Shown here: in pieces, positions 1 to 13,096 of the stretch
How positions within the stretch are numbered: position 1 is the stretch's first letter
Layout of the letters: every line of letters begins with the position of its first letter
Virus record (IMG/VR): IMGVR_UViG_2802429225_000001
Origin: a virus
Taxonomy: Duplodnaviria; Heunggongvirae; Uroviricota; Caudoviricetes
Strand: one strand, 5' to 3'
Length of the DNA: 13,287 nt
Translations under genes and position numbers: made by a program
The notes under the pieces: generated by a model
Told to the model about the DNA's origin: nothing
Database searches by the model: none
Seen by the model: only the letters and a program-made list of their open reading frames with translations

Positions 1-489
1 TTCGTCCCGTATACCGCCATGCAGGACGATAGCGCCCCGACAGGCCAGCGCATCTGGGAAGAGTTACAGAGCGGCAAATGGGGAGAAATAACCCCGTTCA
101 CCGTCACGCCGGAACTTATCACCGCGGCGAAGGATGCCAAAAAGCGGGAAATCGAGGTGTGGCGCACAGAACAGGAGGCGCAGCCGTTCACGTTCGAATG
201 GAACGGTCGTAGCTGGAATGCTGGCCCCAGCTCACTGGCCCGTATCTATCCGGTGGTAATGGCATCAAAATCCGACACAGCGCGGGACGTTATGACATGG
301 GGTGATGCCGATAATCAGCAAGTGAAGATGTCGATGCCAGAGCTTGAGGAGCTGGCTACAGCTATGGCGCAGGCGCAGGTTAACCGCAATGATGAAATTT
401 ATCGACGTCAGCGACAGATGAAGGACGTGCTGGATGGCCTGAATAATCTTGCCGACATCCGCGCTTTTCAGACTGGAGAGTCAGAATGA
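1..489 (+). CDS. Phage tail-fibre-assembly-like protein, DUF4376-type C-terminal domain; reading frame is open to window position 1, so the 5' end probably lies outside the window (first in-window Met at 19)
   Basis: ORF 19..489 with no in-frame stop between 1 and 18 and no Shine-Dalgarno before Met19. Pattern WR..EA..FTFEWNG..W...W.DADN..V.M...RQRQMK matches my recollection of the DUF4376 signature. Stop overlaps next start (ATGA at 486-489). Confidence 0.5.
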   Translation, partial: FVPYTAMQDDSAPTGQRIWEELQSGKWGEITPFTVTPELITAAKDAKKREIEVWRTEQEAQPFTFEWNGRSWNAGPSSLARIYPVVMASKSDTARDVMTWGDADNQQVKMSMPELEELATAMAQAQVNRNDEIYRRQRQMKDVLDGLNNLADIRAFQTGESE

Positions 490-1199
490 AATGGGAAAAG
501 GCAATTCTGCGTCCGTCAGCCATGCACATTAAATGCTCTGTGGTTTGCCTTCATCCATGGTCAGAAAATACCGGAAACATCAAACCATCGGGGCGTTATC
601 TCAGCCCCGAAAATGCTGTATCTGCACTTTTACCCTATCTGAAAGAAAGCACAGAAAAAGACATTGTGGCGCTGTTATTTTGCACCCCTTCTGCTGGCGA
701 GTTTTTATCACTCGCCAGGCAATTTTCAGGCGCATTTCCGTTGCCGGAGGTGGGACGAATGTCCCGCATGATCTCCAGCCAGCTTTCACTGGCCATCAGC
801 AGAATGCAAATCCCCGCCAGACCGGCAACATCACTTCCGGAACCGATAATGCTGTCGACACAGACCACTCGAAGCATGTCGCTGGCGGCAACCATTGCAC
901 AGGCAGCCACTCCTGCCGCCACATCACCGGAAACATTGTCATCATCGCTGCATCAGTTCATGAATGCGAGAGATAAAGCCTTACAGGAAATCGCTGATCA
1001 GCAGGCCGCACTCCGGCAAAAATTTTGCCCGGTGTGGCGCTTTTGCTACAAGGGAGCTCTTAGCCAGGCTGCAGTGCTGATACAAAAAAACATCCCACAC
1101 CCCGAGTGGGTTTTTACAGCTGTGATGCTGTTCGTCGGCGATAATCTCTCATCACTAAGGGAAGCACTACATGACCCAGATGATTGTCCTTGCGCTTGA
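486..1199 (+). CDS. Hypothetical prophage protein (237 aa), function unknown
   Basis: Longest ORF in region; ATGA start/stop overlap with upstream gene and 29-nt overlap with downstream gene suggest a coupled operon. Rare-codon content is fairly high and the protein is S/T/A/P-rich, so the frame call is moderate. Confidence 0.45.
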   Translation: MKWEKAILRPSAMHIKCSVVCLHPWSENTGNIKPSGRYLSPENAVSALLPYLKESTEKDIVALLFCTPSAGEFLSLARQFSGAFPLPEVGRMSRMISSQLSLAISRMQIPARPATSLPEPIMLSTQTTRSMSLAATIAQAATPAATSPETLSSSLHQFMNARDKALQEIADQQAALRQKFCPVWRFCYKGALSQAAVLIQKNIPHPEWVFTAVMLFVGDNLSSLREALHDPDDCPCA

Positions 1200-1746
1200 C
1201 GGGGAAGCCATTCTGCTGCGCAACATCACCGTCAGCGCCACCATGCAACTACCGGACAAAGATATGTCCGGACAGTCAACCAGCACCACGAGCGCCCAGC
1301 AGGGAAACAAGGCTAAAGAGCTGCGCGTGTCGGGGGTTATTGATTTTAACGATGAAGCTATTCTGACCCGTATTTTTCAGCTTGCGGAGGCAACAGAAAG
1401 CAACGGTGCTAAAAAAACATATCGCATTGCTAACGCTACCGCGAAGGCAATCAATATGCGACAGGGGGTATTTTCTGGTGGCATTGATGCCACGGAACAA
1501 CAGGGAAAAATGCACTGGCAGGTCACCTTTACTCTCAGGGAAAAATTAAGCGTGCCAGAGAAAGCATCAGCACGTAGCGGTTCACAAAAAACCATCGCCA
1601 GACAGCAGACCCAGAATGGCAGCGAACAGGCACCAGACAAAGGCATGAATACGCAAAGTTCGTTCTGGAAAAAAATCAATGATGCCGTTGGCTCTGGTCT
1701 GGATGCTGTTGGCATTGGGAGCGTGAAAGAGGAAGGGAAAACATGA
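1171..1746 (+). CDS. Hypothetical prophage protein (191 aa); possibly a tail-associated protein
   Basis: ORF with AAGGGA Shine-Dalgarno-like sequence about 7 nt before ATG 1171; stop overlaps next start (ATGA at 1743-1746). No motif I can assign confidently. Confidence 0.5.
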   Translation: MTQMIVLALDGEAILLRNITVSATMQLPDKDMSGQSTSTTSAQQGNKAKELRVSGVIDFNDEAILTRIFQLAEATESNGAKKTYRIANATAKAINMRQGVFSGGIDATEQQGKMHWQVTFTLREKLSVPEKASARSGSQKTIARQQTQNGSEQAPDKGMNTQSSFWKKINDAVGSGLDAVGIGSVKEEGKT

Positions 1747-3440
1747 AATTGATACAACGCTGCATGATTAATGGCGAACAGGTGGAAATTGCCGATATAA
1801 ACCTTGTTCTTACCCTGAATGCTGCCGGTCGTGGCTTCATTTCTGTTAACAATCTGTCACCCGAACACAGCCTTGCCGGCGCAATGGTACAAATTGATCT
1901 CGGCCGTGACGGTGAAGCATGGCGCTATTTCTCCGGCTACATTGAGCGCGATCAACCTGCTGAAAATGGCTCACGTCGCCTTTTTATCCGTGAAGCAGCT
2001 GCTGTGCTGGATTTTGATTTCCCTTGCTCCATGCAACACCCGACGTTGCGGGGGGTACTCGATAATCTGGGCAAACAAAGCGGCATCGTTTTCATCACGC
2101 CAGATGCGGATTACGTCAGCATACCAACTCCCTACATCACCCACAGCGGCAGCGGAGCACAACTGCTCAGCCAACTGGGGCGAGCATTCAGTATCAGCGA
2201 TTACGTCTGGCATCCAATGCCGGACGGTTCTGTATTTGTGGGAAGCGCAGCTGATTCACGATTTGCCAGTATTACAATGCCGGATATTCCGCAACAGTAC
2301 ACACTCGGGCAAAGCGGCGGAAACAGCATCGACATCATGTTTATGGAAACTGTGCGACCGGGCGTGAACCTACCGGCCGGGCGCATTACCCGTGTAGCCC
2401 TCAACAACGAGAAAATGACCCTGACATGGGAGCGCCTTACCGCCACGGGTAGCCCTGTTTCCAAATCACCATTACGCAGACAAATGGAAACACAGTTCCC
2501 GGAACTGGCCAGCGGTACTCTTCATACCCGGCTGGCGCGCGTCATTGCCCCAACGGAATCCGTCACCCTGGGCGATGTAGCCGACAGCTTCCGCCCACGC
2601 TACGCCGTTGATGTGCAGTTGCTTGATGAGAACGGCAACGATAAAAACGATACACCTGTTTACCCGGCAGTACCCCTCCCCGTCCCCATGGCTGGCAGTG
2701 AGGCGGGATGTTTTGCCTACCCGCCGGCTGGCACCATCGTGGAAATATCCAACATTGAAGGACGACCGGATAAACCTGTCATCAGGCAAATCTTACCCGC
2801 GGGCCATAACCTGCCTGATGTAAAGCCCGGCGAACAGCTGCAGCAACAGCGCGCAGAAGTGTTTCAGCGCGTCACGACTGACGGAAGCTGGCACAGAGAA
2901 ACCGATCAGCAAATCAGGGAGCATTCAGCCAGGCGAACCATTAACAGCGATCAGGAAGAACGCACAACAACAACCAGAACAACAACAGTACAGGCAAACG
3001 ACATAACCAGCGTTCTGGGAACCAGCAAGCTGATGACAGGCCAGACAGAACACATTACTACTGGCCATTATGCGATCGCAGCCGGTGAGCATATCCAGAT
3101 GGTAGCGCAGGATTTGCTGACTAAACTCAAAGGGGCGACATCCACCATCGAACATAACCTCACCGAAAATGTGGGAGGCCGCAGAACATGCCGGGCGGAC
3201 GGCGGCCTGGAATTTACCGCCCCGACTGTATTTATCGGTCGCGGTGGCTCACGGGAAAAATCCGGACTTAATCTGCTGACGTTGTTGATTGATATTCTGG
3301 ATCTGGTTCAGTTGCTGGCCACACACACTGCAAACCATACCCATAGCAATACTGGCGCACCAACAAACAGCAGCGAACTTGCCACAGACGCCCAACAGGC
3401 TACGAGCCTGCGCGAAAAATACGGTGACCTTATCGCCTGA
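1743..3440 (+). CDS. Prophage structural-type protein (565 aa); possible baseplate hub (gpD/gp27/VgrG-like N-terminal region) with Thr-rich linker and His-cluster C-terminal region
   Basis: Long ORF, translationally coupled to upstream gene. N-terminal segment (AWRYFSGYIER ... LRGVLDNLGKQSGIV) resembles the conserved hub motif of gpD/VgrG proteins as I recall it; C-terminal part has ERTTTTRTTTV and HTANHTHSNTG (HxH-type cluster as in spike tips). Functional call is by-eye only. Confidence 0.6.
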   Translation: MKLIQRCMINGEQVEIADINLVLTLNAAGRGFISVNNLSPEHSLAGAMVQIDLGRDGEAWRYFSGYIERDQPAENGSRRLFIREAAAVLDFDFPCSMQHPTLRGVLDNLGKQSGIVFITPDADYVSIPTPYITHSGSGAQLLSQLGRAFSISDYVWHPMPDGSVFVGSAADSRFASITMPDIPQQYTLGQSGGNSIDIMFMETVRPGVNLPAGRITRVALNNEKMTLTWERLTATGSPVSKSPLRRQMETQFPELASGTLHTRLARVIAPTESVTLGDVADSFRPRYAVDVQLLDENGNDKNDTPVYPAVPLPVPMAGSEAGCFAYPPAGTIVEISNIEGRPDKPVIRQILPAGHNLPDVKPGEQLQQQRAEVFQRVTTDGSWHRETDQQIREHSARRTINSDQEERTTTTRTTTVQANDITSVLGTSKLMTGQTEHITTGHYAIAAGEHIQMVAQDLLTKLKGATSTIEHNLTENVGGRRTCRADGGLEFTAPTVFIGRGGSREKSGLNLLTLLIDILDLVQLLATHTANHTHSNTGAPTNSSELATDAQQATSLREKYGDLIA

Positions 3441-3479
3441 TCACCGGGCATAAAGCCCCCCATAAACGCCCCATCACGC

Positions 3480-3508
3480 AACGCACGGCTCCGGTCGTGC
3501 GTTTTCAT
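3480..3508 (+). terminator. Candidate intrinsic terminator after the 565-aa gene
   Basis: Stem ACGCACG (3481-3487) / CGTGCGT (3496-3502), 8-nt loop, followed by TTTTC; lies 40 nt after the stop at 3440. Confidence 0.4.
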
Positions 3509-3983
3509 ATCTGCCACCTGATTAATGCGTTCTGCGTGCCATTCCGGCGCTGTATGCGCACACCACGTAAACGGTGTGACGTAAAGCGTGAGGTGACGTA
3601 AACCGCGCTACCCCCTCCAACCCGCGGGTTTTGTGTCGAAACACTTTTTCAGTTTTCTGCCGTGCAAAAATGACCGCCAGCCCGCGCAGCAACTGAGGGA
3701 AAAGCGAAGATCTGAAATTTCACGTTTTGAAATTTTTTGCAGTTTTCAGAGAGGTTTTTACGATCGCACAAATGGCAGGGGCAATAAAACTGCATGATAT
3801 TAAAAGAGTTTTCATGCTTTACGTGGGACAAGACACGATCGCGAAAGGATCGCGTTAAACAACTCTCAAACAAAGAAGCCAGACGCAGCGCGGCCTGCGT
3901 AAAATCAAGAGCCAGAATTAAACTGAAAAAAGGATCAATACCACGCCTCGATCGCGCATGACGATCTATGCAGCAACATGACG

Positions 3984-4050
3984 AAAAAAAACCGGCGCGA
4001 ACGCCGGCGGAAGCATGTATCAAATGCGTGACTGAATAATGTCTGCGGTC
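3984..4050 (-). ncRNA. Candidate small RNA (about 67 nt) with its own promoter and intrinsic terminator, divergent from the hok-like promoter
   Basis: On the minus strand: -35 TTGAGG (4079-4084), 16-nt spacer, extended -10 TGaTATAAA (4057-4065), then about 67 nt ending in hairpin CCGGCG-UUCG-CGCCGG (3992-4007) followed by eight U (A-run 3984-3991 on plus strand). No convincing ORF or Shine-Dalgarno inside. Confidence 0.35.
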
Positions 4051-4088
4051 GGGAATTTTATATCAGAAGACTGACAGGCCTCAACGGA

Positions 4089-4118
4089 TTGAAACAAGGG
4101 AAAAAACCAGGCTAGAAT
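4089..4118 (+). promoter_or_regulatory. Candidate sigma70 promoter of the hok-like mRNA
   Basis: TTGAAA (4089-4094), 18-nt spacer, TAGAAT (4113-4118); predicted start near 4125, exactly where the 5' element complementary to the 3' end begins. Confidence 0.45.
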
Positions 4119-4168
4119 TCGCGCGGGTGCCTTTCGGCTGATGGCTGGAGGGAATACCTGAAGGCCGG

Positions 4169-4351
4169 ATGTGGAAAGGCCCCGGAAAACATTTTTGTTT
4201 AACCGAGGCCCTAACCGTCTACCTAGCAAGTGATAGGTTAGCGCCTCCCCGAAAAAGGAGCAAGCGCTATGTCGCAAAAATCGCTTACAGCCATCACGTT
4301 CTGTGTGACGGCAATCCTCATCATCTGGATGCTGCACGGCTCGCTGTGTGA
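4169..4351 (+). CDS. mok-like overlapping reading frame (60 aa) upstream of and overlapping the hok-like toxin gene
   Basis: ORF starts at ATG 4169 (GAAGG 4160-4164 upstream), is in a different frame from the toxin ORF and ends inside it, as mok does in hok/sok loci. Protein shows no recognisable domain, so the role is by position only. Confidence 0.3.
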   Translation: MWKGPGKHFCLTEALTVYLASDRLAPPRKRSKRYVAKIAYSHHVLCDGNPHHLDAARLAV

Positions 4352-4409
4352 AATACGGATGAGCTTCTGGGGAGCGGAGTTTGCGGCGTTCTTACAGTGT
4401 AAGCAGTAA
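4269..4409 (+). CDS. hok: Hok/Gef-family type I toxin (46 aa small membrane peptide)
   Basis: ATG 4269 preceded by AAGGAG (4255-4260, 8-nt spacer). Translation MSQKSLTAITFCVTAILIIWMLHGSLCEIRMSFWGAEFAAFLQCKQ has a hydrophobic N-terminal helix plus the SLCEIR ... E.AAF motif shared with Hok (R1) and HokA. Below the size cut-off of the supplied ORF track. Confidence 0.7.
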   Translation: MSQKSLTAITFCVTAILIIWMLHGSLCEIRMSFWGAEFAAFLQCKQ

Positions 4410-4495
4410 GGAAACCGCGACGGGGGAGTAATCCCCCGTCAATCGGTTGCTAAGGTTGGTCGAAACGGCACCCTATCTCACAGACATGAACAACA

Positions 4496-4530
4496 AACCC
4501 GCAGCGTAAAAACTGCGGGTTTTCTTTTTG
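4496..4530 (+). terminator. Intrinsic terminator of the hok-like transcript
   Basis: Stem AACCCGCAG (4496-4504) / CTGCGGGTT (4513-4521), loop CGTAAAAA, followed by TTTCTTTTTGTTG. Confidence 0.6.
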
Positions 4531-4579
4531 TTGCCCTCACAAATGAGGGTGACACTATTCGTAAGCAATAGGCATGACA

Positions 4580-4627
4580 GATCGATGCAATAAATCCGAT
4601 CGATAAAAACGATCGGTTTGTTATCAT
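4580..4627 (+). promoter_or_regulatory. Regulatory region of the com-methyltransferase operon: three clustered GATC sites plus candidate extended -10 promoter
   Basis: GATC at 4580-4583, 4598-4601 and 4611-4614 (two within ATCGAT); TGtTATCAT extended -10 at 4619-4627 with no good -35 (the -35 position coincides with a GATC). Resembles the layout upstream of Mu mom. Confidence 0.4.
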
Positions 4628-4661
4628 ATCGGCAGCAGTAACCACACAAGAGGTGCCGCAA

Positions 4662-4859
4662 ATGACGCAAAATGTACGATGCAAAAATTGCAACAAACTA
4701 CTTGCCCGCGCCTCATTTCACTACATTGAAATAAAATGTCCGCGCTGCAAAACACTTAACCAGATAACGAGAGCCATTGAGCACCCCACACGCATGAGGA
4801 GTTATGACCGTGGGGATCGCAACCCAGCATCAACCAGTACATACACCGGAACACACTAA
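4662..4859 (+). CDS. com: Com-like zinc-finger translational regulator (65 aa from ATG 4662; the ORF track starts 3 codons earlier at GTG 4653)
   Basis: AAGAGGTG Shine-Dalgarno (4648-4655) 6 nt before ATG 4662. Protein MTQNVRCKNCNKLLARASFHYIEIKCPRCK ... EHPT carries the CxxC ... CxxC motif and surrounding residues of phage Mu Com. Confidence 0.8.
   Translation: MTQNVRCKNCNKLLARASFHYIEIKCPRCKTLNQITRAIEHPTRMRSYDRGDRNPASTSTYTGTH
4784..4815 (+). promoter_or_regulatory. Stem-loop sequestering the methyltransferase ribosome-binding site and start codon (candidate Com-responsive translational operator)
   Basis: CCCCAC (4784-4789) pairs with GTGGGG (4810-4815); the 20-nt loop holds GAGGAG (4796-4801) and ATG 4804. 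Lies inside the 3' end of com. Confidence 0.4.
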
Positions 4860-5610
4860 GATTTACCAGATTGACAATGCCACGCTCTGTCGTGGAAATG
4901 CACTGGAAATATTGCCGCTGATTGAGCCAGAAAGCATTGATGCCTTAATCACTGACCCGCCTTACAGTTCGGGTGCGACACACAAGGCCGGACGCACCAA
5001 CCAGGGCAGTCATGCAAAATATCTGAACGGCGAGAACCTTCACCGCTTTGATGGGTTCGCGGGTGAGAACATGGACGCCCGTTCGTGGGCTTACTGGACA
5101 CAATTATGGATGGCACAGGCACTACGTGCAGTCAGGTCGGGCGGTTATGCCCTGGTATTTACTGACTGGCGACAACTGCCTGCTTTAACCGATGCGTTTC
5201 AGGCCAGCGGTTTTACATGGCGTGGAATCATTGCGTGGAACAAAGGAAAGGGGTCACGAACACCCCATACGGGGTATTTCCGGCATCAGTGCGAATACAT
5301 CGTCTGGGGCAGCAAAGGCCATTTAGGTAAATCGCCTTCGGGTCCGTTCGACGGCTGCATGACGTTCCCGGTTATCCCGTCAAAGAAAATGCACCCGACC
5401 GGAAAACCAGAAGAACTAATGGCAGAGCTGGTCAGAACTGCGAATAGTGGCGGAACAGTCCTTGATCCTTTTATGGGGTCAGGGACAACGGGTGTGGCTG
5501 CACTGAAAGCAGGGCGAAAATTTATTGGTATAGAAACCAGTGATCATTATTTTGAGGTAGCGGCGCAGCGGCTTCGGGGGACTATTACCACAACCATTTC
5601 GACTACATAA
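4804..5610 (+). CDS. DNA amino-methyltransferase, beta class (N6-adenine or N4-cytosine; N6_N4_Mtase type), 268 aa
   Basis: Motif IV DPPY (LITDPPYSS) precedes HPTGKP and motif I DPFMGSGTT, the beta-class order (IV before I). Start overlaps the com 3' end out of frame (ATG 4804; alternative GTG 4810). Confidence 0.85.
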   Translation: MTVGIATQHQPVHTPEHTKIYQIDNATLCRGNALEILPLIEPESIDALITDPPYSSGATHKAGRTNQGSHAKYLNGENLHRFDGFAGENMDARSWAYWTQLWMAQALRAVRSGGYALVFTDWRQLPALTDAFQASGFTWRGIIAWNKGKGSRTPHTGYFRHQCEYIVWGSKGHLGKSPSGPFDGCMTFPVIPSKKMHPTGKPEELMAELVRTANSGGTVLDPFMGSGTTGVAALKAGRKFIGIETSDHYFEVAAQRLRGTITTTISTT

Positions 5611-6156: not shown

Positions 6157-6336
6157 TCAAAATGTGTGATGGAAATCTCATAATTTTGTCACTTTTTGTC
6201 AACGAAGTTTTTTTGTGAGAAATCGCAGGAAGAAGTGTTTTTTTACTTGAGGAATGTCTCAAAGCGAGCCATATTTGATGAGATCGATCGCGACTAAATC
6301 GCTTCAGTTACACGCGTTACAGAATAAAAAAACGGC

Positions 6337-6349
6337 AGCTCAAGGGCTG
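6337..6349. repeat. Target-site duplication copy (left) of the IS4 insertion: AGCTCAAGGGCTG
   Basis: Identical 13-mer recurs at 7777-7789 on the other side of the IS; with the preceding base it is 13/14 identical to 7776-7789. Confidence 0.6.
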
Positions 6350-7775
6350 TAATGCCAGTCAGTTAAGCAACTGACTGGCTCTTTTTCGGGGCTGTGGGGG
6401 ATTTCCAGGGTCTCTCCTTTACCACTCTCGGGAAGGCCCTTTCCCTTCTTGTCGGTAATTTCACTAGTTGTCCCATACTTGCAAGATCGCGCATCAGCTC
6501 CGGTATACGTCCCGGTGAAGCGCCCTGCAATGTCATCAGCATTCTCATCACCATTCCGCATGATTCTGAGAAACTCAGTTGATTCGGCCAGTAACCTTTC
6601 AGATGTTCTGCCATTTTAATCATCTGATATCTCACCAGATTATAAGCCAGTAAGACACCCCATAGCTCTTGCTCCACAAGCTCCGGCTTTTTACTTCTCA
6701 GCGTCAGCCTGCTCAGTTGCATCGTCTGTTTTATCTCCCTGTATCCCAGTTCGATTTCCCAGCGATGACTGTACAGATCCGCCATTTCTCCTCCGGGGAA
6801 GCGCATGGCGTCCGTCATCGACGTCAGCAGATGGCAGACTTTTCCTTTGCGCGTCACGGTCAGCAGGCGGGCTGTCACCTCATTTCCCAGTCCCGGCCAC
6901 TTTTTTCGTGCCTGCGGGCTGGTTTTCAGCTTCACCAGATGATCGCCTTTACCCAGTTTTCTGATCTCTTCATATTGCGCTCCCTTTCTGAGAGGGATCA
7001 TCCAGTGGCGGTGTTCTCCCGCCTGGCTCCAGGCATTTAACAGTCCCAGTGAGTAATAACCTTTATCCATTAACGTCAGGGTGTTATCGCCGGTTTGTTC
7101 TATAAGTTGCTCAGCAAGCTCATTTTCGCTGTTCTTCATCGTGCCGAAAGCTGCAGCCGTCAGCAGATGGCTGGTCAGTTCCATCTGGCAGACCATTTTG
7201 ACCTGCGGGTAGAGCGCCGGGTTCCCGGCATGTGTCTGGCGGGGGAAGGCTGCATCGTTCTCTGGTGTATCCGGTGTGCGCCAGAACACACCATCGATGG
7301 CCAGCAGGGTCAGGCCGCACCAGTGCGGATGCGGCGTGGCGTTATGCCAGAGCTGCGCTGTTTTCGTGAACACGCGGCGGACAGCCTCACTTCCCAGGCG
7401 CTGGCGGGCCTGAATAACGGCACTGGGGGCAACGAAGGGGCGATTGCCCGGTAGCATGATGTCCAGGCGATTCACAATCTGGTGAAGAGGTTCTTTACGC
7501 TCAAGCGCCATGCCAACAATACACCAGACCATCATTTCGAGGGGAAGACGGCGCTTGCGTAGCGTTACAGTACCTGATTCGGCAAGGCAACGAGAGATGA
7601 GTTCGGGGTCGAGGTAATCCCCCAGAGAAGTCAGTGGGTTACGCAGAGAATCGTAACGGGATACCAAATCAAGTGCCTGTCCAATGAGCATAAAAAAATC
7701 CGGAAACGAGTGAGCGTTTCCGGATTCTTACACAGCCACTGGATCGGTCAACTGATCCTTAACTGATCGGCATTA
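6350..7775 (-). mobile_element. IS4 insertion sequence, complete copy (1426 bp) with 18-bp imperfect terminal inverted repeats
   Basis: Ends TAATGCCAGTCAGTTAAG (6350-6367) and, reverse-complemented, TAATGCCGATCAGTTAAG (7758-7775), 16/18 match. Length 1426 bp and a single 442-aa transposase ORF match IS4 as I know it; flanked by the 13-bp direct repeat. Confidence 0.9.
6363..7691 (-). CDS. insG: IS4 transposase (DDE family, InsG-type), 442 aa
   Basis: Full-length ORF inside the IS. Start ATG at 7689-7691 is immediately preceded on the minus strand by an 11-bp stem (7698-7708 / 7715-7725) and a U-run, a typical IS read-through barrier. Confidence 0.9.
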
Positions 7776-7776
7776 G

Positions 7777-7789
7777 AGCTCAAGGGCTG
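7777..7789. repeat. Target-site duplication copy (right) of the IS4 insertion: AGCTCAAGGGCTG
   Basis: Same 13-mer as 6337-6349; one extra G (7776) lies between the IS end and this copy. Confidence 0.6.
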
Positions 7790-7812
7790 CCGTTTTGTGT
7801 TTCAGAATTCTG

Positions 7813-8550
7813 TTATGTATTGCTGCTGTTTGCGGCGATGATTTTCGCGACTTTTTCAGCTTGTGCATTCATCTGCATCTGACGGTAAGCATTTTCCATT
7901 AGTGGCAGAGCATCACGTGTAGCCTGAGTATCCGGGAAATCGCGCAGCATGCCTTCTACACGGTTAACGACAGCAACCCATGCGCCGCGTTCTGTATAGT
8001 ACTCGGCAACAGAGTATTCATATTTCGCCAGGCGATCTTTCAGGAACACCAGACGTTTGGTGGCATCGGTGGTGTACTGACTGTTCGGATAGCCGCGAAC
8101 TAATTTGGAAAAGTCACTAAACGCAGCTCGAGCATGTTGAGGATCGCGATCGCTACGGTCAACGCCAAAGAATCCTTGTAGCGCACTGTCATCCAGTGCC
8201 ATATTGGTCAGGCCACGCATATACATGACATAATCGATATTCGGATGGGTCGGGTTCAGGCGAATAAAACGATCGATGGCAGCCTGTGCTAACGGCAGAT
8301 CGGCGTTTTTATAATAGGCGTAGATGAGATCCAACTGCACCTGCTGTGAATACGGACCAAACGGATAGCGATTATCTAACGCTTCCAGTTGCGTTATTGC
8401 CTGTCTCCAGTTACCGTCCTGCAGCTTTTGTTGTGCAGTCGCGTAAATTTCATTTGGCGGATTATCAGGTACTTTTTCCTTTGAACCCGAGCAACCCGCC
8501 AAAAACAGGCTTAATGTGGCGGCTGCCACCAGATATTTCATGCGCGTCAT
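7813..8550 (-). CDS. bamD: Outer-membrane protein assembly factor BamD (YfiO) lipoprotein, 245 aa
   Basis: [26 protein letters not shown] ... with lipobox LAGC; recognised as E. coli BamD. Confidence 0.95.
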
Positions 8551-10393: not shown

Positions 10394-10455
10394 CCTAAAG
10401 AATCAAGACGATCCGGTACGCGTGATTTTCTTTTCACATTAATCTGGTCAATAAC

Positions 10456-10483
10456 CTTGAATAATTGAGGGATGACCTCATTT
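10456..10483 (+). promoter_or_regulatory. Candidate sigma32 (heat-shock) promoter of clpB
   Basis: CTTGAAT (10456-10462), 13-nt spacer, CCTCATTT (10476-10483), matching the sigma32 consensus CTTGAAA / CCCCATnT; about 40 nt upstream of the clpB start. Confidence 0.55.
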
Positions 10484-10522
10484 AATCTCCAGTAGCAACT
10501 TTGATCCGTTATGGGAGGAGTT

Positions 10523-13096
10523 ATGCGTCTGGATCGTCTTACTAACAAATTCCAGCTTGCTCTTGCCGATGCCCAATCACTTGCACTCGGGCACGACAAC
10601 CAATTCATCGAACCACTTCATTTAATGAGCGCCCTGCTGAATCAGGAAGGGGGTTCGGTTAGTCCTTTATTAACATCCGCTGGCATTAATGCTGGCCAAT
10701 TGCGCACAGATATCAATCAGGCATTAAATCGTTTACCGCAGGTTGAAGGTACAGGGGGCGATGTCCAGCCTTCACAGGATCTGGTGCGCGTTCTTAATCT
10801 TTGCGACAAGCTGGCGCAAAAACGTGGTGATAACTTTATCTCGTCAGAACTGTTTGTTCTGGCGGCACTTGAGTCTCGCGGCACGCTGGCCGACATCCTG
10901 AAAGCAGCAGGGGCGACCACCGCCAACATTACTCAAGCGATTGAACAAATGCGTGGAGGTGAAAGCGTGAATGATCAAGGAGCCGAAGACCAACGTCAGG
11001 CTTTGAAAAAATATACCATTGACCTTACCGAACGTGCCGAACAAGGTAAACTCGATCCGGTAATTGGTCGTGATGAAGAAATTCGTCGTACCATTCAGGT
11101 ACTGCAACGCCGTACTAAAAATAACCCGGTACTGATCGGTGAACCTGGTGTCGGTAAAACCGCCATCGTTGAAGGTTTGGCGCAGCGTATTATCAATGGC
11201 GAAGTACCTGAAGGGCTGAAAGGCCGCCGCGTACTGGCGCTGGATATGGGCGCGCTGGTGGCTGGGGCGAAATATCGTGGTGAGTTTGAAGAACGTCTGA
11301 AAGGCGTGCTGAACGATCTGTCGAAACAGGAAGGCAACGTCATTCTGTTTATCGATGAGCTGCACACCATGGTGGGCGCAGGTAAAGCCGATGGCGCAAT
11401 GGACGCCGGGAATATGCTGAAACCGGCACTGGCCCGTGGTGAACTGCACTGCGTGGGCGCGACCACCCTTGATGAATATCGCCAGTACATTGAAAAAGAT
11501 GCGGCGCTGGAACGTCGTTTCCAGAAAGTGTTTGTTGCCGAGCCAACGGTGGAAGACACCATTGCTATTCTGCGTGGCCTGAAAGAACGTTACGAGCTGC
11601 ACCACCATGTGCAAATTACTGACCCGGCAATTGTTGCAGCGGCGACGTTGTCTCATCGCTACATTGCTGACCGTCAGTTGCCAGATAAAGCCATCGACCT
11701 GATCGATGAAGCGGCATCCAGTATCCGTATGCAGATTGACTCAAAACCGGAAGAGCTTGACCGACTCGATCGTCGAATTATCCAGCTTAAGCTGGAACAA
11801 CAGGCGTTAATGAAAGAGTCTGATGAAGCCAGTAAAAAACGTCTGGATATGCTCAATGAAGAACTGAGTGACAAAGAACGCCAGTACTCTGAGTTAGAAG
11901 AGGAGTGGAAAGCAGAGAAAGCGTCACTCTCTGGCACCCAGACCATTAAAGCCGAACTGGAACAGGCGAAAATCGCCATTGAACAGGCGCGCCGTGTAGG
12001 TGATCTGGCGCGGATGTCCGAACTGCAATACGGCAAAATTCCGGAGCTCGAAAAACAACTGGAAGCGGCTACGCAGCTCGAAGGCAAAACCATGCGTCTG
12101 TTGCGTAATAAAGTGACTGACGCAGAAATTGCTGAAGTGTTGGCGCGTTGGACGGGCATTCCTGTTTCTCGCATGATGGAAAGTGAGCGCGAAAAACTGC
12201 TGCGTATGGAGCAAGAACTGCACCATCGTGTTATTGGCCAAAACGAAGCCGTTGATGCGGTATCTAACGCCATTCGTCGTAGCCGTGCGGGGCTTGCGGA
12301 TCCTAATCGCCCGATTGGTTCGTTCTTGTTCCTCGGTCCAACGGGTGTAGGTAAAACCGAACTCTGTAAGGCGCTGGCGAATTTTATGTTCGACAGTGAC
12401 GAGGCGATGGTTCGTATCGATATGTCCGAGTTTATGGAGAAACACTCGGTGTCTCGTCTGGTTGGTGCACCTCCGGGATATGTGGGTTATGAAGAAGGTG
12501 GCTACCTGACTGAAGCGGTGCGTCGTCGTCCTTATTCCGTCATTCTGCTGGATGAAGTGGAAAAAGCGCATCCGGATGTATTCAACATTCTGTTGCAGGT
12601 TCTGGATGACGGACGTCTGACTGATGGGCAGGGGAGAACGGTCGATTTCCGTAATACGGTGGTCATTATGACCTCTAACCTCGGCTCCGATCTGATCCAG
12701 GAACGTTTCGGTGAACTGGATTATGCGCGCATGAAAGAGCTGGTGCTCGGCGTGGTTAGCCATAACTTCCGTCCGGAATTCATAAACCGTATTGATGAAG
12801 TTGTGGTCTTCCACCCGTTGGGTGAACAACATATCGCTTCGATTGCCCAGATCCAGTTGAAACGTCTGTACAAACGTCTGGAAGAACGTGGTTATGAAAT
12901 CCACATTTCTGACGAGGCACTGAAACTGCTGAGCGAGAATGGTTACGATCCGGTTTATGGTGCACGTCCTCTGAAACGTGCTATCCAGCAACAGATCGAA
13001 AACCCGCTGGCGCAGCAAATACTGTCTGGTGAATTGGTTCCTGGCAAAGTCATTCGCCTGGAAGTTAATGAAGACCGCATTGTCGCCGTCCAGTAA
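10523..13096 (+). CDS. clpB: Chaperone/disaggregase ClpB (Hsp100 AAA+ ATPase), 857 aa
   Basis: Two AAA+ modules (Walker A GEPGVGKT and GPTGVGKT) and the middle coiled-coil. I place the start at ATG 10523, which gives the 857-aa length I know for ClpB, with GGGAGGAG 10513-10520 as Shine-Dalgarno, rather than the track's ATG 10511. Internal GTG (Val149) at 10967-10969 matches the known ClpB-80 alternative start. Confidence 0.97.

Follow-up and report, generated by a model that had tools for sequence, protein, structure and literature searches.

Short iterated repeats downstream of the tail genes of an HP1-like Escherichia prophage are probably part of a cos packaging site

This study concerns a cluster of short ACGTAAA repeats in a non-coding gap of a 13,287-nucleotide stretch of DNA (hereafter the window) from a virus of the Caudoviricetes, IMG/VR record IMGVR_UViG_2802429225_000001. 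The open reading frames (ORFs) at 19-3440 represent the end of a late phage operon and encode a DUF4376 protein, a hypothetical protein, a homologue of ORF34 of phage HP1 and a protein of 565 amino acids (aa). The ORF34 homologue, encoded at 1171-1746, matches Pfam HP1_ORF34 (PF25759, E = 1e-53). On the 3' side of the gap lie hok, a gene for a Com-like zinc ribbon and a gene for an N6-adenine methyltransferase. From their position and from comparison with related phages, we consider it likely that the repeats are part of a cos (cohesive-end) site, in which they would serve as terminase recognition repeats, and that this site belongs to an HP1-like prophage of the P2 family (Peduoviridae).

Sequence reading and an exact search confirmed the three direct copies of ACGTAAA that the initial annotation had placed on the + strand, at 3565-3571, 3579-3585 and 3596-3602, spaced by 14 and 17 bp. 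The second and third are indeed contained in full copies of GTGACGTAAA (3576-3585 and 3593-3602, 17 bp apart), and all three lie on the 3' side of the 565-aa gene as described, 125-162 bp past the stop codon of ORF 1743-3440. The exact search also returned a fourth copy, inverted, at 3818-3824, which had been missed. The surrounding 1.2 kb had been described as ORF-free; this did not hold, as a hok/mok toxin locus lies inside it and leaves only about 830 bp of gap before the next gene. ACGTAAA occurs four times in the whole window against an expectation of 1.15, a count reached by 5 of 200 shuffles. The triple is the sole site in the window at which one 7-mer is present three times within 45 bp, and a triple cluster of any 7-mer appeared in 13 of 500 dinucleotide-preserving shuffles. 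The initial annotation knew of no named motif that matched. The motif has no name, as stated there, but it is also present beside the cos sites annotated in HP1 and phiO18P. Comparison with the consensus sites of CpxR (GTAAA-N5-GTAAA), CRP, MetJ, Ogr (TGT-N12-ACA) and IHF gave no fit in spacing or sequence. The features of the locus are collected in Table 1.

Table 1. Position of the repeats and of the other parts of the predicted packaging site in the window. Offsets are counted from the predicted cos start.
Feature	Position	Strand	Remarks
565-aa homologue of HP1 orf35 / K139 orf39 / phiO18P gp46	1743..3440	+	Last gene of the late tail/baseplate operon; landmark for cos
Whole conserved non-coding module (predicted cos)	3441..3941	.	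Found in E. coli, viral and metagenome loci
Rho-independent terminator of the late operon, AACGCACGG...CCGTGCGTT and T run	3480..3508	+	Left border of the module
Repeat copy 1, CACGTAAA	3564..3571	+	Weakest copy; starts at -44 (HP1 -45, phiO18P -42)
Repeat copy 2, GACGTAAA	3578..3585	+	At -30 (phiO18P and SW5 identical; HP1 -32)
Repeat copy 3, GACGTAAA	3595..3602	+	Nearest to cos; at -13 (phiO18P, SW5, ESSI-2 and K139 identical; HP1 -15)
Predicted cleavage region (cosN), CCGCG / CTACCCCCTCCAACCCGC / GGG	3603..3630	.	Aligns with the ends of phiO18P, ESSI-2 and HP1
Conserved TTTTTCAGTTTT block	3645..3656	+	About 38 bp into the predicted left end; invariant among E. coli loci
Conserved inverted repeat AAATTTCA/TGAAATTT and second TTTTGCAGTTTTC copy	3715..3747	.	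Left arm of the module
Repeat copy 4, inverted CACGTAAA	3817..3824	-	About +209
Inverted AAACTGAAAAAA block	3920..3941	.	Right border of the module; cargo starts past it

Conservation was assessed from an unbiased sample obtained with the anchor CCCCCTCCAACCCNCGGGTTT, in which the motif is not included. The anchor recovered 21 viral contigs, 9 metagenome contigs and a single species representative, E. albertii, the latter out of 185,579 species representatives searched; the exact block is essentially confined to Escherichia. The module as a whole was present, at a coverage of at least 80%, in 48 of 5426 complete E. coli genomes, or about 1%, and was annotated in none of them. The conservation set comprised 36 Escherichia loci with 13 distinct upstream sequences. 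Copy 3 reads ACGTAAA in every one of these loci, as does copy 2 in 35, the exception being locus L024 with GGCGTAAA; the 17-bp spacing between the two is kept in all 36, and the inverted distal copy, TTTACG[TC]G, in 34. The 9-nt spacer between copies 2 and 3 has been replaced in three diverged lineages, its identity to the window being 1/9 in locus L004, 3/9 in L024 and 6/9 in a metagenome variant, with motif and spacing unchanged. Positions 3578-3656 form the most conserved part of the gap, and selection is on the motif, not on its neighbourhood. The motif is thus conserved in homologous prophages, the point on which the initial annotation had staked its reading, and it is this conservation, rather than the chance statistics, which is the decisive argument for judging the motif real and functional-looking. 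A chance repetition with no function of its own, kept through the recent kinship of the prophages, would be consistent with the overall identity of 91-96% among most E. coli copies and with the modest statistics given above. Nevertheless, this explanation is strongly disfavoured and retains almost no probability, as motif and 17-bp spacing outlive the replacement of the spacer in the three diverged lineages, and the same motif recurs at the same offsets in phages of Haemophilus, Aeromonas, Vibrio and Salmonella, whose flanks cannot be aligned outside short conserved blocks.

With regard to the element that carries the repeats, a prophage of E. coli SC418 is 94-96% identical to the window over 39-5561. 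The first part of this prophage encodes an integrase, the repressor (C), Cox, a replication endonuclease, ParM, ogr, the portal and the terminase large subunit. The second part comprises the scaffold, a P2-family capsid, the gpM terminase small subunit and the tail and fibre genes, and the last part the HP1_ORF34 homologue, the 565-aa gene, the gap, hok, com and the methyltransferase. The P2-type terminase (gpP and gpM) and the portal therefore lie outside the window and are annotated in this close relative. A Mu-like phage, considered on account of the com-like gene and the terminal methyltransferase, was dropped, as the full map is that of an integrase-bearing P2-family phage; MuA end-binding sites and Gin/Hin crossover sites, with which the motif had been compared under that reading, were dropped with it. 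A small protein was also discarded, the minus-strand ORFs at 3522-3692 and 3649-4023 having no Pfam match and the relatives showing indels there.

Because the anchor block is nearly confined to Escherichia, more distant relatives were reached via the orf35 protein. In a tblastn search of 50,697 phage genomes, the 565-aa protein was 42% identical to orf35 of HP1 and HP2 and 45-47% identical to its counterparts in ESSI-2 and SW5. The orf35 homologue is the terminal gene of the linear genome in the records of HP1, HP2, K139, phiO18P, ESSI-2 and SW5. In the Haemophilus phage HP1, 192 bp separate the orf35 stop codon from the right terminus, and the left end carries cosL (1-9), attP (251-694) and int (698-1711). 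The Aeromonas phage phiO18P has an annotated 16-nt cosL and cosR, with 200 bp from stop codon to cos. In the Vibrio phage K139, the terminator T39 and the end of the record are followed by attP and int; the record ends 174 bp past the stop codon, and the homologous CT lies at about 142 bp. The Cronobacter phage ESSI-2 shows a 15-nt terminal redundancy, CTACACCGCACCCGC, which starts 183 bp past the stop codon and ends with the record at 198 bp. The Salmonella phage SW5 is recorded without cos annotation, and its homologous CT and record end are found at 166 and 175 bp, respectively. The window fits into this series: the stop codon of the 565-aa ORF is 167 bp from the predicted cos start, C3608, so that the placement of HP1-like cos sites 140-200 bp past the orf35 homologue matches the place of the repeats and of the invariant block that follows them. 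The 15 nt of CTACACCGCACCCGC stand at both termini of the ESSI-2 record (L028, HQ110083); this is probably the unannotated cohesive end of that phage and the positional homologue of phiO18P cosL. For the related Vibrio phage PV94, 16-nt 5' overhangs have been shown experimentally (PMC3986222).

The junctions themselves have a common layout. They read ...CCACGGAAATTTTTCACGTAAAAACACAAGGCACGGAAAATCCACT / TCCTTCCCCACCGAATTTACGTTAAAAATTTGTGTTTTTTCAGTTAG... in HP1, ...CACGGAAACACCCACGGCGGCGTCTGCGCCACGGAATCCGCG / CTCATCCGCTCCCGCC / TGCGGG... in phiO18P, ...GACGGAAGCGGATCCAGGACGGAAACGGCGCTACACCGC... in SW5 and ...CCACGTAATCGACCCTTTGACCCACGGAATCCGCGCTCCTCTACACCCGCC... in K139, and the corresponding junction of the window consists of CACGTAAACGGTGTGACGTAAAGCGTGAGGTGACGTAAACCGCG, then CTACCCCCTCCAACCCGC, then GGGTTTTGTGTCGAAACACTTTTTCAGTTTTC. 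In each order, a terminator is followed by two or three direct copies of [C/G]ACG[G/T]AA, usually spaced by 12-14 and 17 bp, and by a C-rich cohesive end 13-15 bp from the start of the last copy. When the start of each copy is expressed relative to the first base of the cohesive end, HP1 has CACGGAA at -45, CACGTAA at -32 and CACGGAA at -15, with an inverted copy at +220. The values are -42, -30, -13 and about +222 for phiO18P, -30, -13 and +206 for SW5, and -44, -30, -13 and +209 for the window; an inverted copy about 205-225 bp inward is thus found in HP1, phiO18P and SW5. In an alignment of nine junctions, the core of copy 3 aligns throughout, together with a CCGCGCT-like linker and the C-rich cohesive end, and a T-rich run containing TTTTTCAG aligns in the window group, ESSI-2 and HP1; in the latter two, TTTTTCAG stands about 35 bp into the left end. 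The window differs from the other HP1-like cos sites in having ACGTAAA where they have ACGGAA, in its predicted cohesive-end sequence (CTACCCCCTCCAACCCGC) and in the interval between cos and attP, which holds about 2 kb of cargo (hok, com and methyltransferase) as against 250-500 bp in HP1, K139 and phiO18P.

This layout bears on the two kinds of site that the initial annotation had proposed. The general idea of iterated half-sites bound by a protein stands as the best reading, whereas a replication-initiator site does not fit and a regulator site seems unlikely. Operators at which a phage or host regulator would control a promoter of the downstream cargo genes are suggested by the short direct repeats in a non-coding gap, which are typical of operators, by the variable cargo downstream and by an AT-rich stretch with conserved inverted repeats at 3700-3830. 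We regard such operators as unlikely. A consensus scan limited to sigma-70-type promoters found none on the + strand of 3441-4088, and hok has its own promoter at 4089-4118. In HP1, phiO18P and SW5, the geometry of the repeats is fixed to the terminus, and in HP1, phiO18P and K139 what comes after the repeats is not a regulated gene but the end of the genome, then attP and int in the opposite orientation. Furthermore, the repeats remain constant from locus to locus while the genes downstream change.

Iterons of a replication origin, bound by an initiator and common to phage and satellite through the primase or the phage replication protein, would be in keeping with the iteration of the copies, the AT-rich region nearby and the large primase of the satellite islands described below. 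They are nevertheless very unlikely. The phage has a replication endonuclease of the P2 gpA type, encoded about 25 kb away in the prophage, and the nick site of P2 is inside gene A according to the P2 record. No DnaA box was found in 3441-4270 and no initiator gene lies near, the copies, 13-14 and 17 bp apart, are not in helical phase, and HP1-like phages devoid of any primase keep the repeats exactly at their termini. The type 1 repeats of the P4 ori and crr offer a parallel, as they too are short, occur in direct and inverted orientation and lie in a non-coding part of a mobile element. In the P4 record, the ori repeats are a different set and are placed apart from the P4 cos, and in contrast to replication iterons the HP1-type repeats stand at a genome terminus, unphased, without initiator gene or DnaA boxes.

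The module in which the predicted cos repeats lie begins with the terminator of the late operon, which has a fold energy of -17 kcal/mol (z = -3.8) and is kept with compensatory changes, CACGG/CCGTG becoming CATGG/CCATG in L004. It is also present in the satellite copies, and the K139 record annotates the equivalent terminator as T39. A function at the RNA level, as part of a small RNA, either antisense or derived from a 3' untranslated region, or as sites for an RNA-binding protein, could draw on read-through past this terminator into the repeats immediately downstream and on pairing between direct and inverted copies (3596-3602 with 3818-3824). We judge it highly improbable: a search of 3441-4100 against Rfam gave no match down to a cut-off of E <= 1, the fold of 3540-3660 is ordinary on both strands (z = -0.88 and +0.85), the terminator 5' of the repeats is strong, and the genomes of HP1 and phiO18P are cut between the would-be pairing partners. 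Covariation gives no evidence in either direction because the paired blocks never vary.

Past the direct copies of the predicted cos site follows the block at 3603-3630, which is invariant and the most conserved of the whole gap. It aligns with the 16-nt cosL/cosR of phiO18P, CTCATCCGCTCCCGCC, with the 15-nt redundancy of ESSI-2 and with the HP1 terminus. From these alignments, cleavage would take place within it, with a top-strand nick predicted between 3607/3608, in the register of phiO18P and ESSI-2, and 3609/3610, in that of HP1, and with a predicted cohesive end at about 3608-3625. Further inward, HP1, ESSI-2 and P2 have a TTTTTCAGTTTT-type block at +30 to +50 of their left ends, and in the window it recurs in direct orientation at 3735-3747 and inverted at 3920-3931. 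These occurrences define a second conserved iterated motif, TTTT[TG]CAGTTTT, in the predicted left arm of cos (3645-3656 and 3735-3747 on the + strand, 3920-3931 inverted), and HP1, ESSI-2 and P2 all have TTTTTTCAG 30-50 bp inward from the left end. This motif is a candidate for the second half of the signal that the terminase recognises.

The left arm of the module is also enriched in GATC. Seven sites fall within 300 bp at 3700-3970, the maximum of the window, against an expectation of about 1.4, and AAAGGATC is present twice, at 3844 and 3929. The left arms of K139, phiO18P, SW5 and ESSI-2 have 3-4 GATC per 400 bp, the expectation being about 1 per 400 bp for K139 and ESSI-2, the two phages for which the genome-wide density was computed. 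A[AG]GGATC is found again in ESSI-2, phiO18P and SW5, and adenine methyltransferases are encoded by HP1, ESSI-2, K139 and this prophage. The cluster recalls the methylation-controlled pac site of P1.

Among other packaging systems, the nearest are those of P2 and P4, whose cos comprises a 19-nt cohesive end and a 55-bp shared core (Ziermann and Calendar 1990, as cited in PMC9122126 and PMC5694545). The predicted site shares with them the virus family, the P2-type terminase genes, the sharing of the packaging site between helper and satellite, an adjoining cargo hotspot and TTTTTTCAG at about 45 bp into the left end. A cos of the P2 type itself was rejected, as the 19-nt cohesive end of P2, GGCGAGGCGGGGAAAGCAC, is absent from the window and from the homologous prophage with up to 3 mismatches allowed. 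The sequence of the repeated motif also differs, and in P2 cos adjoins the portal gene Q, whereas the site in the window follows the tail genes. Inspection by eye of the right ends of P2 (L034) and P4 (L039) revealed a cluster of three TGCAT copies, about 105-135 bp short of the cohesive end, and a further copy adjoining it (..TGCATTAAAACCGCCCC..); the DNA between the copies differs in P2 and P4. In P2-type phages, TGCAT may correspond to the HP1-type repeats. Its presence in both P2 and P4 suggests that an iterated motif at the right end is a general plan for the family.

The cos of lambda is a composite site of about 200 bp (cosQ, cosN and cosB), at which the terminase makes the cohesive ends and flanking subsites direct the staggered nicking of cosN (PMC4669245). 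The predicted site resembles it in this composite plan, and the role of the terminase here would be analogous; in contrast, there is no sequence similarity, and the terminase small subunits are unrelated. The cosB subsites of lambda are iterated binding sites of the small subunit, and its R sites, of 16 bp, are located on the left-end side. Given that the direct copies are on the right-end side here, they could equally correspond to cosQ.

Homology between the prophages breaks at about 3936-3941, stopping at about 3936 in seven E. coli genomes, with different cargo beyond. This varying DNA fits the cos-adjacent cargo hotspots that have been reported for P2 and P4 (PMC9122126). In the related prophage at L004, the cargo after the module (6274-7923) comprises a 259-aa protein annotated as SufA, a YafO-family toxin, a hypothetical protein and then hok. 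A module about 80% identical to that of the window was also found in four satellite-like islands of about 10-12 kb (L002, L003, L008 and L021), which extend over 5450-12264 in L002 and over the whole 11,987-bp contig in L008. In these islands every copy of the motif is intact, the inverted one included, as is the predicted cleavage block. They encode an integrase, an 895-aa primase, AlpA, a repressor, an ogr/delta-like activator, hok and a homologue of the P2-family major capsid protein (PF05125, E = 5e-43). Genes for a terminase, a portal or a tail were not found in them, nor were sid or psu, and the islands do not match the usual P4 gene set. The hok cassette adjoins the module in the islands as well. 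The sharing of the module between satellite and prophage parallels the use of the P2 cos by P4, where both share the core cos signal and have variable cargo directly beside it (PMC9122126).

We propose that a P2-type terminase, consisting of a gpM-like small and a gpP-like large subunit, would recognise replicated phage DNA at the module. The terminase is the likely binding protein because position and homology put the repeats 13-45 bp from an HP1-like cohesive-end site. It would be positioned by the direct copies of [C/G]ACGTAAA that start at -44, -30 and -13, probably together with the inverted copy at about +209, which may cooperate through bending or wrapping of the DNA. The enzyme would then nick both strands of the invariant C-rich block, staggered over about 3608-3625, to yield the cohesive ends of the virion chromosome, and a satellite with the same module would be packaged by the terminase of its helper. 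On the analogy with the cos of lambda, the repeats would act in the initiation of packaging rather than in its termination.

Several observations weigh against this interpretation. The statistics within the window are by themselves a modest argument, suggestive but not compelling. Copy 1 is variable: of the 36 loci, 12 have ACGTAAA and most have GCGTAAA, and 2 lack the copy. The two copies of K139 are 21 bp apart instead of 17, and in ESSI-2 the motif occurs only in degenerate versions (GACAAAAA and AATAAAAC). The ends of this Escherichia phage family are predicted from sequence. The module was found at the DNA level in none of the isolated phages of the 50,697-genome collection, and none of the 9 metagenome and 21 viral contigs ends at the predicted cos. 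In addition, we infer the binding of terminase to the repeats, and specifically of its gpM-like small subunit, from position, iteration and conservation, and the repeats could be a signal for the termination of packaging, like cosQ of lambda, rather than for the initial binding of terminase, like cosB.

In the accessible literature, no experiment on these repeats was found, the papers giving cos positions and overhangs only. The HP1 repeats may already have been noted in print; an older paper on the HP1 cos is reportedly that of Fitzmaurice et al. from 1984. The site is probably a new, unannotated cos of the HP1 type, with a repeat code that was possibly undefined before. More tentatively, and with a confidence somewhat short of an even balance, the [C/G]ACG[G/T]AA repeats, with direct copies at about -45, -30 and -13 and an inverted one at about +210, could represent a so far undefined terminase code which is common to the whole HP1-like branch of the P2 family and has been copied, for its own packaging, by a previously undescribed kind of E. 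coli satellite.

Several further features were noted around the module. A toxin-antitoxin locus of the hok/mok/sok type occupies about 4125-4450, with the hok ORF at 4270-4409 and mok at 4169-4351; the Rfam match to sok at 4125-4282 is below threshold (43 bits for a cut-off of 59 bits). On the minus strand of 3984-4084, a promoter-like site (4084-4055) is followed by a strong terminator (4008-3991) and a T run, and an RNA of about 65 nt could be made there, between the cos module and hok. This segment has no Rfam match and was found only in this prophage family (41 E. coli genomes). The Mu Com-like zinc ribbon (4653-4859) overlaps the N6-adenine DNA methyltransferase (4804-5610), and upstream of both a GATC-containing palindrome, CCGATCGATAAAAACGATCGG (4596-4616), overlaps a promoter-like site, an arrangement which resembles the methylation-sensitive control of Mu mom. 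Beyond the prophage, the window contains the host genes raiA, bamD, rluD, yfiH and clpB. An IS4-family transposase (6363-7691) is located between raiA and bamD, in the segment 5761-7691, and the small RNA RyfD (Rfam RF02768, 125 bits) lies at 10404-10542 upstream of clpB, as expected for this host region.

The present findings do not overturn current understanding, as the principle of a cos site flanked by recognition repeats is well known. What they provide is that a 500-bp gap left unannotated in about 1% of complete E. coli genomes becomes a predicted packaging site with a predicted cleavage position. The motif and its spacing form a signature that could help to locate cos in HP1-like prophages, in which these sites are otherwise hard to find because, unlike in P2, they are placed after the tail genes. 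A cos site would also account for the build-up of cargo past the module, including toxin-antitoxin, methyltransferase and other genes, and for the sharing of this DNA with satellites. If the repeats are indeed the docking code of the terminase, they would be usable for delivery vectors based on cos plasmids and would define the specificity of packaging between helper and satellite in this group of phages.

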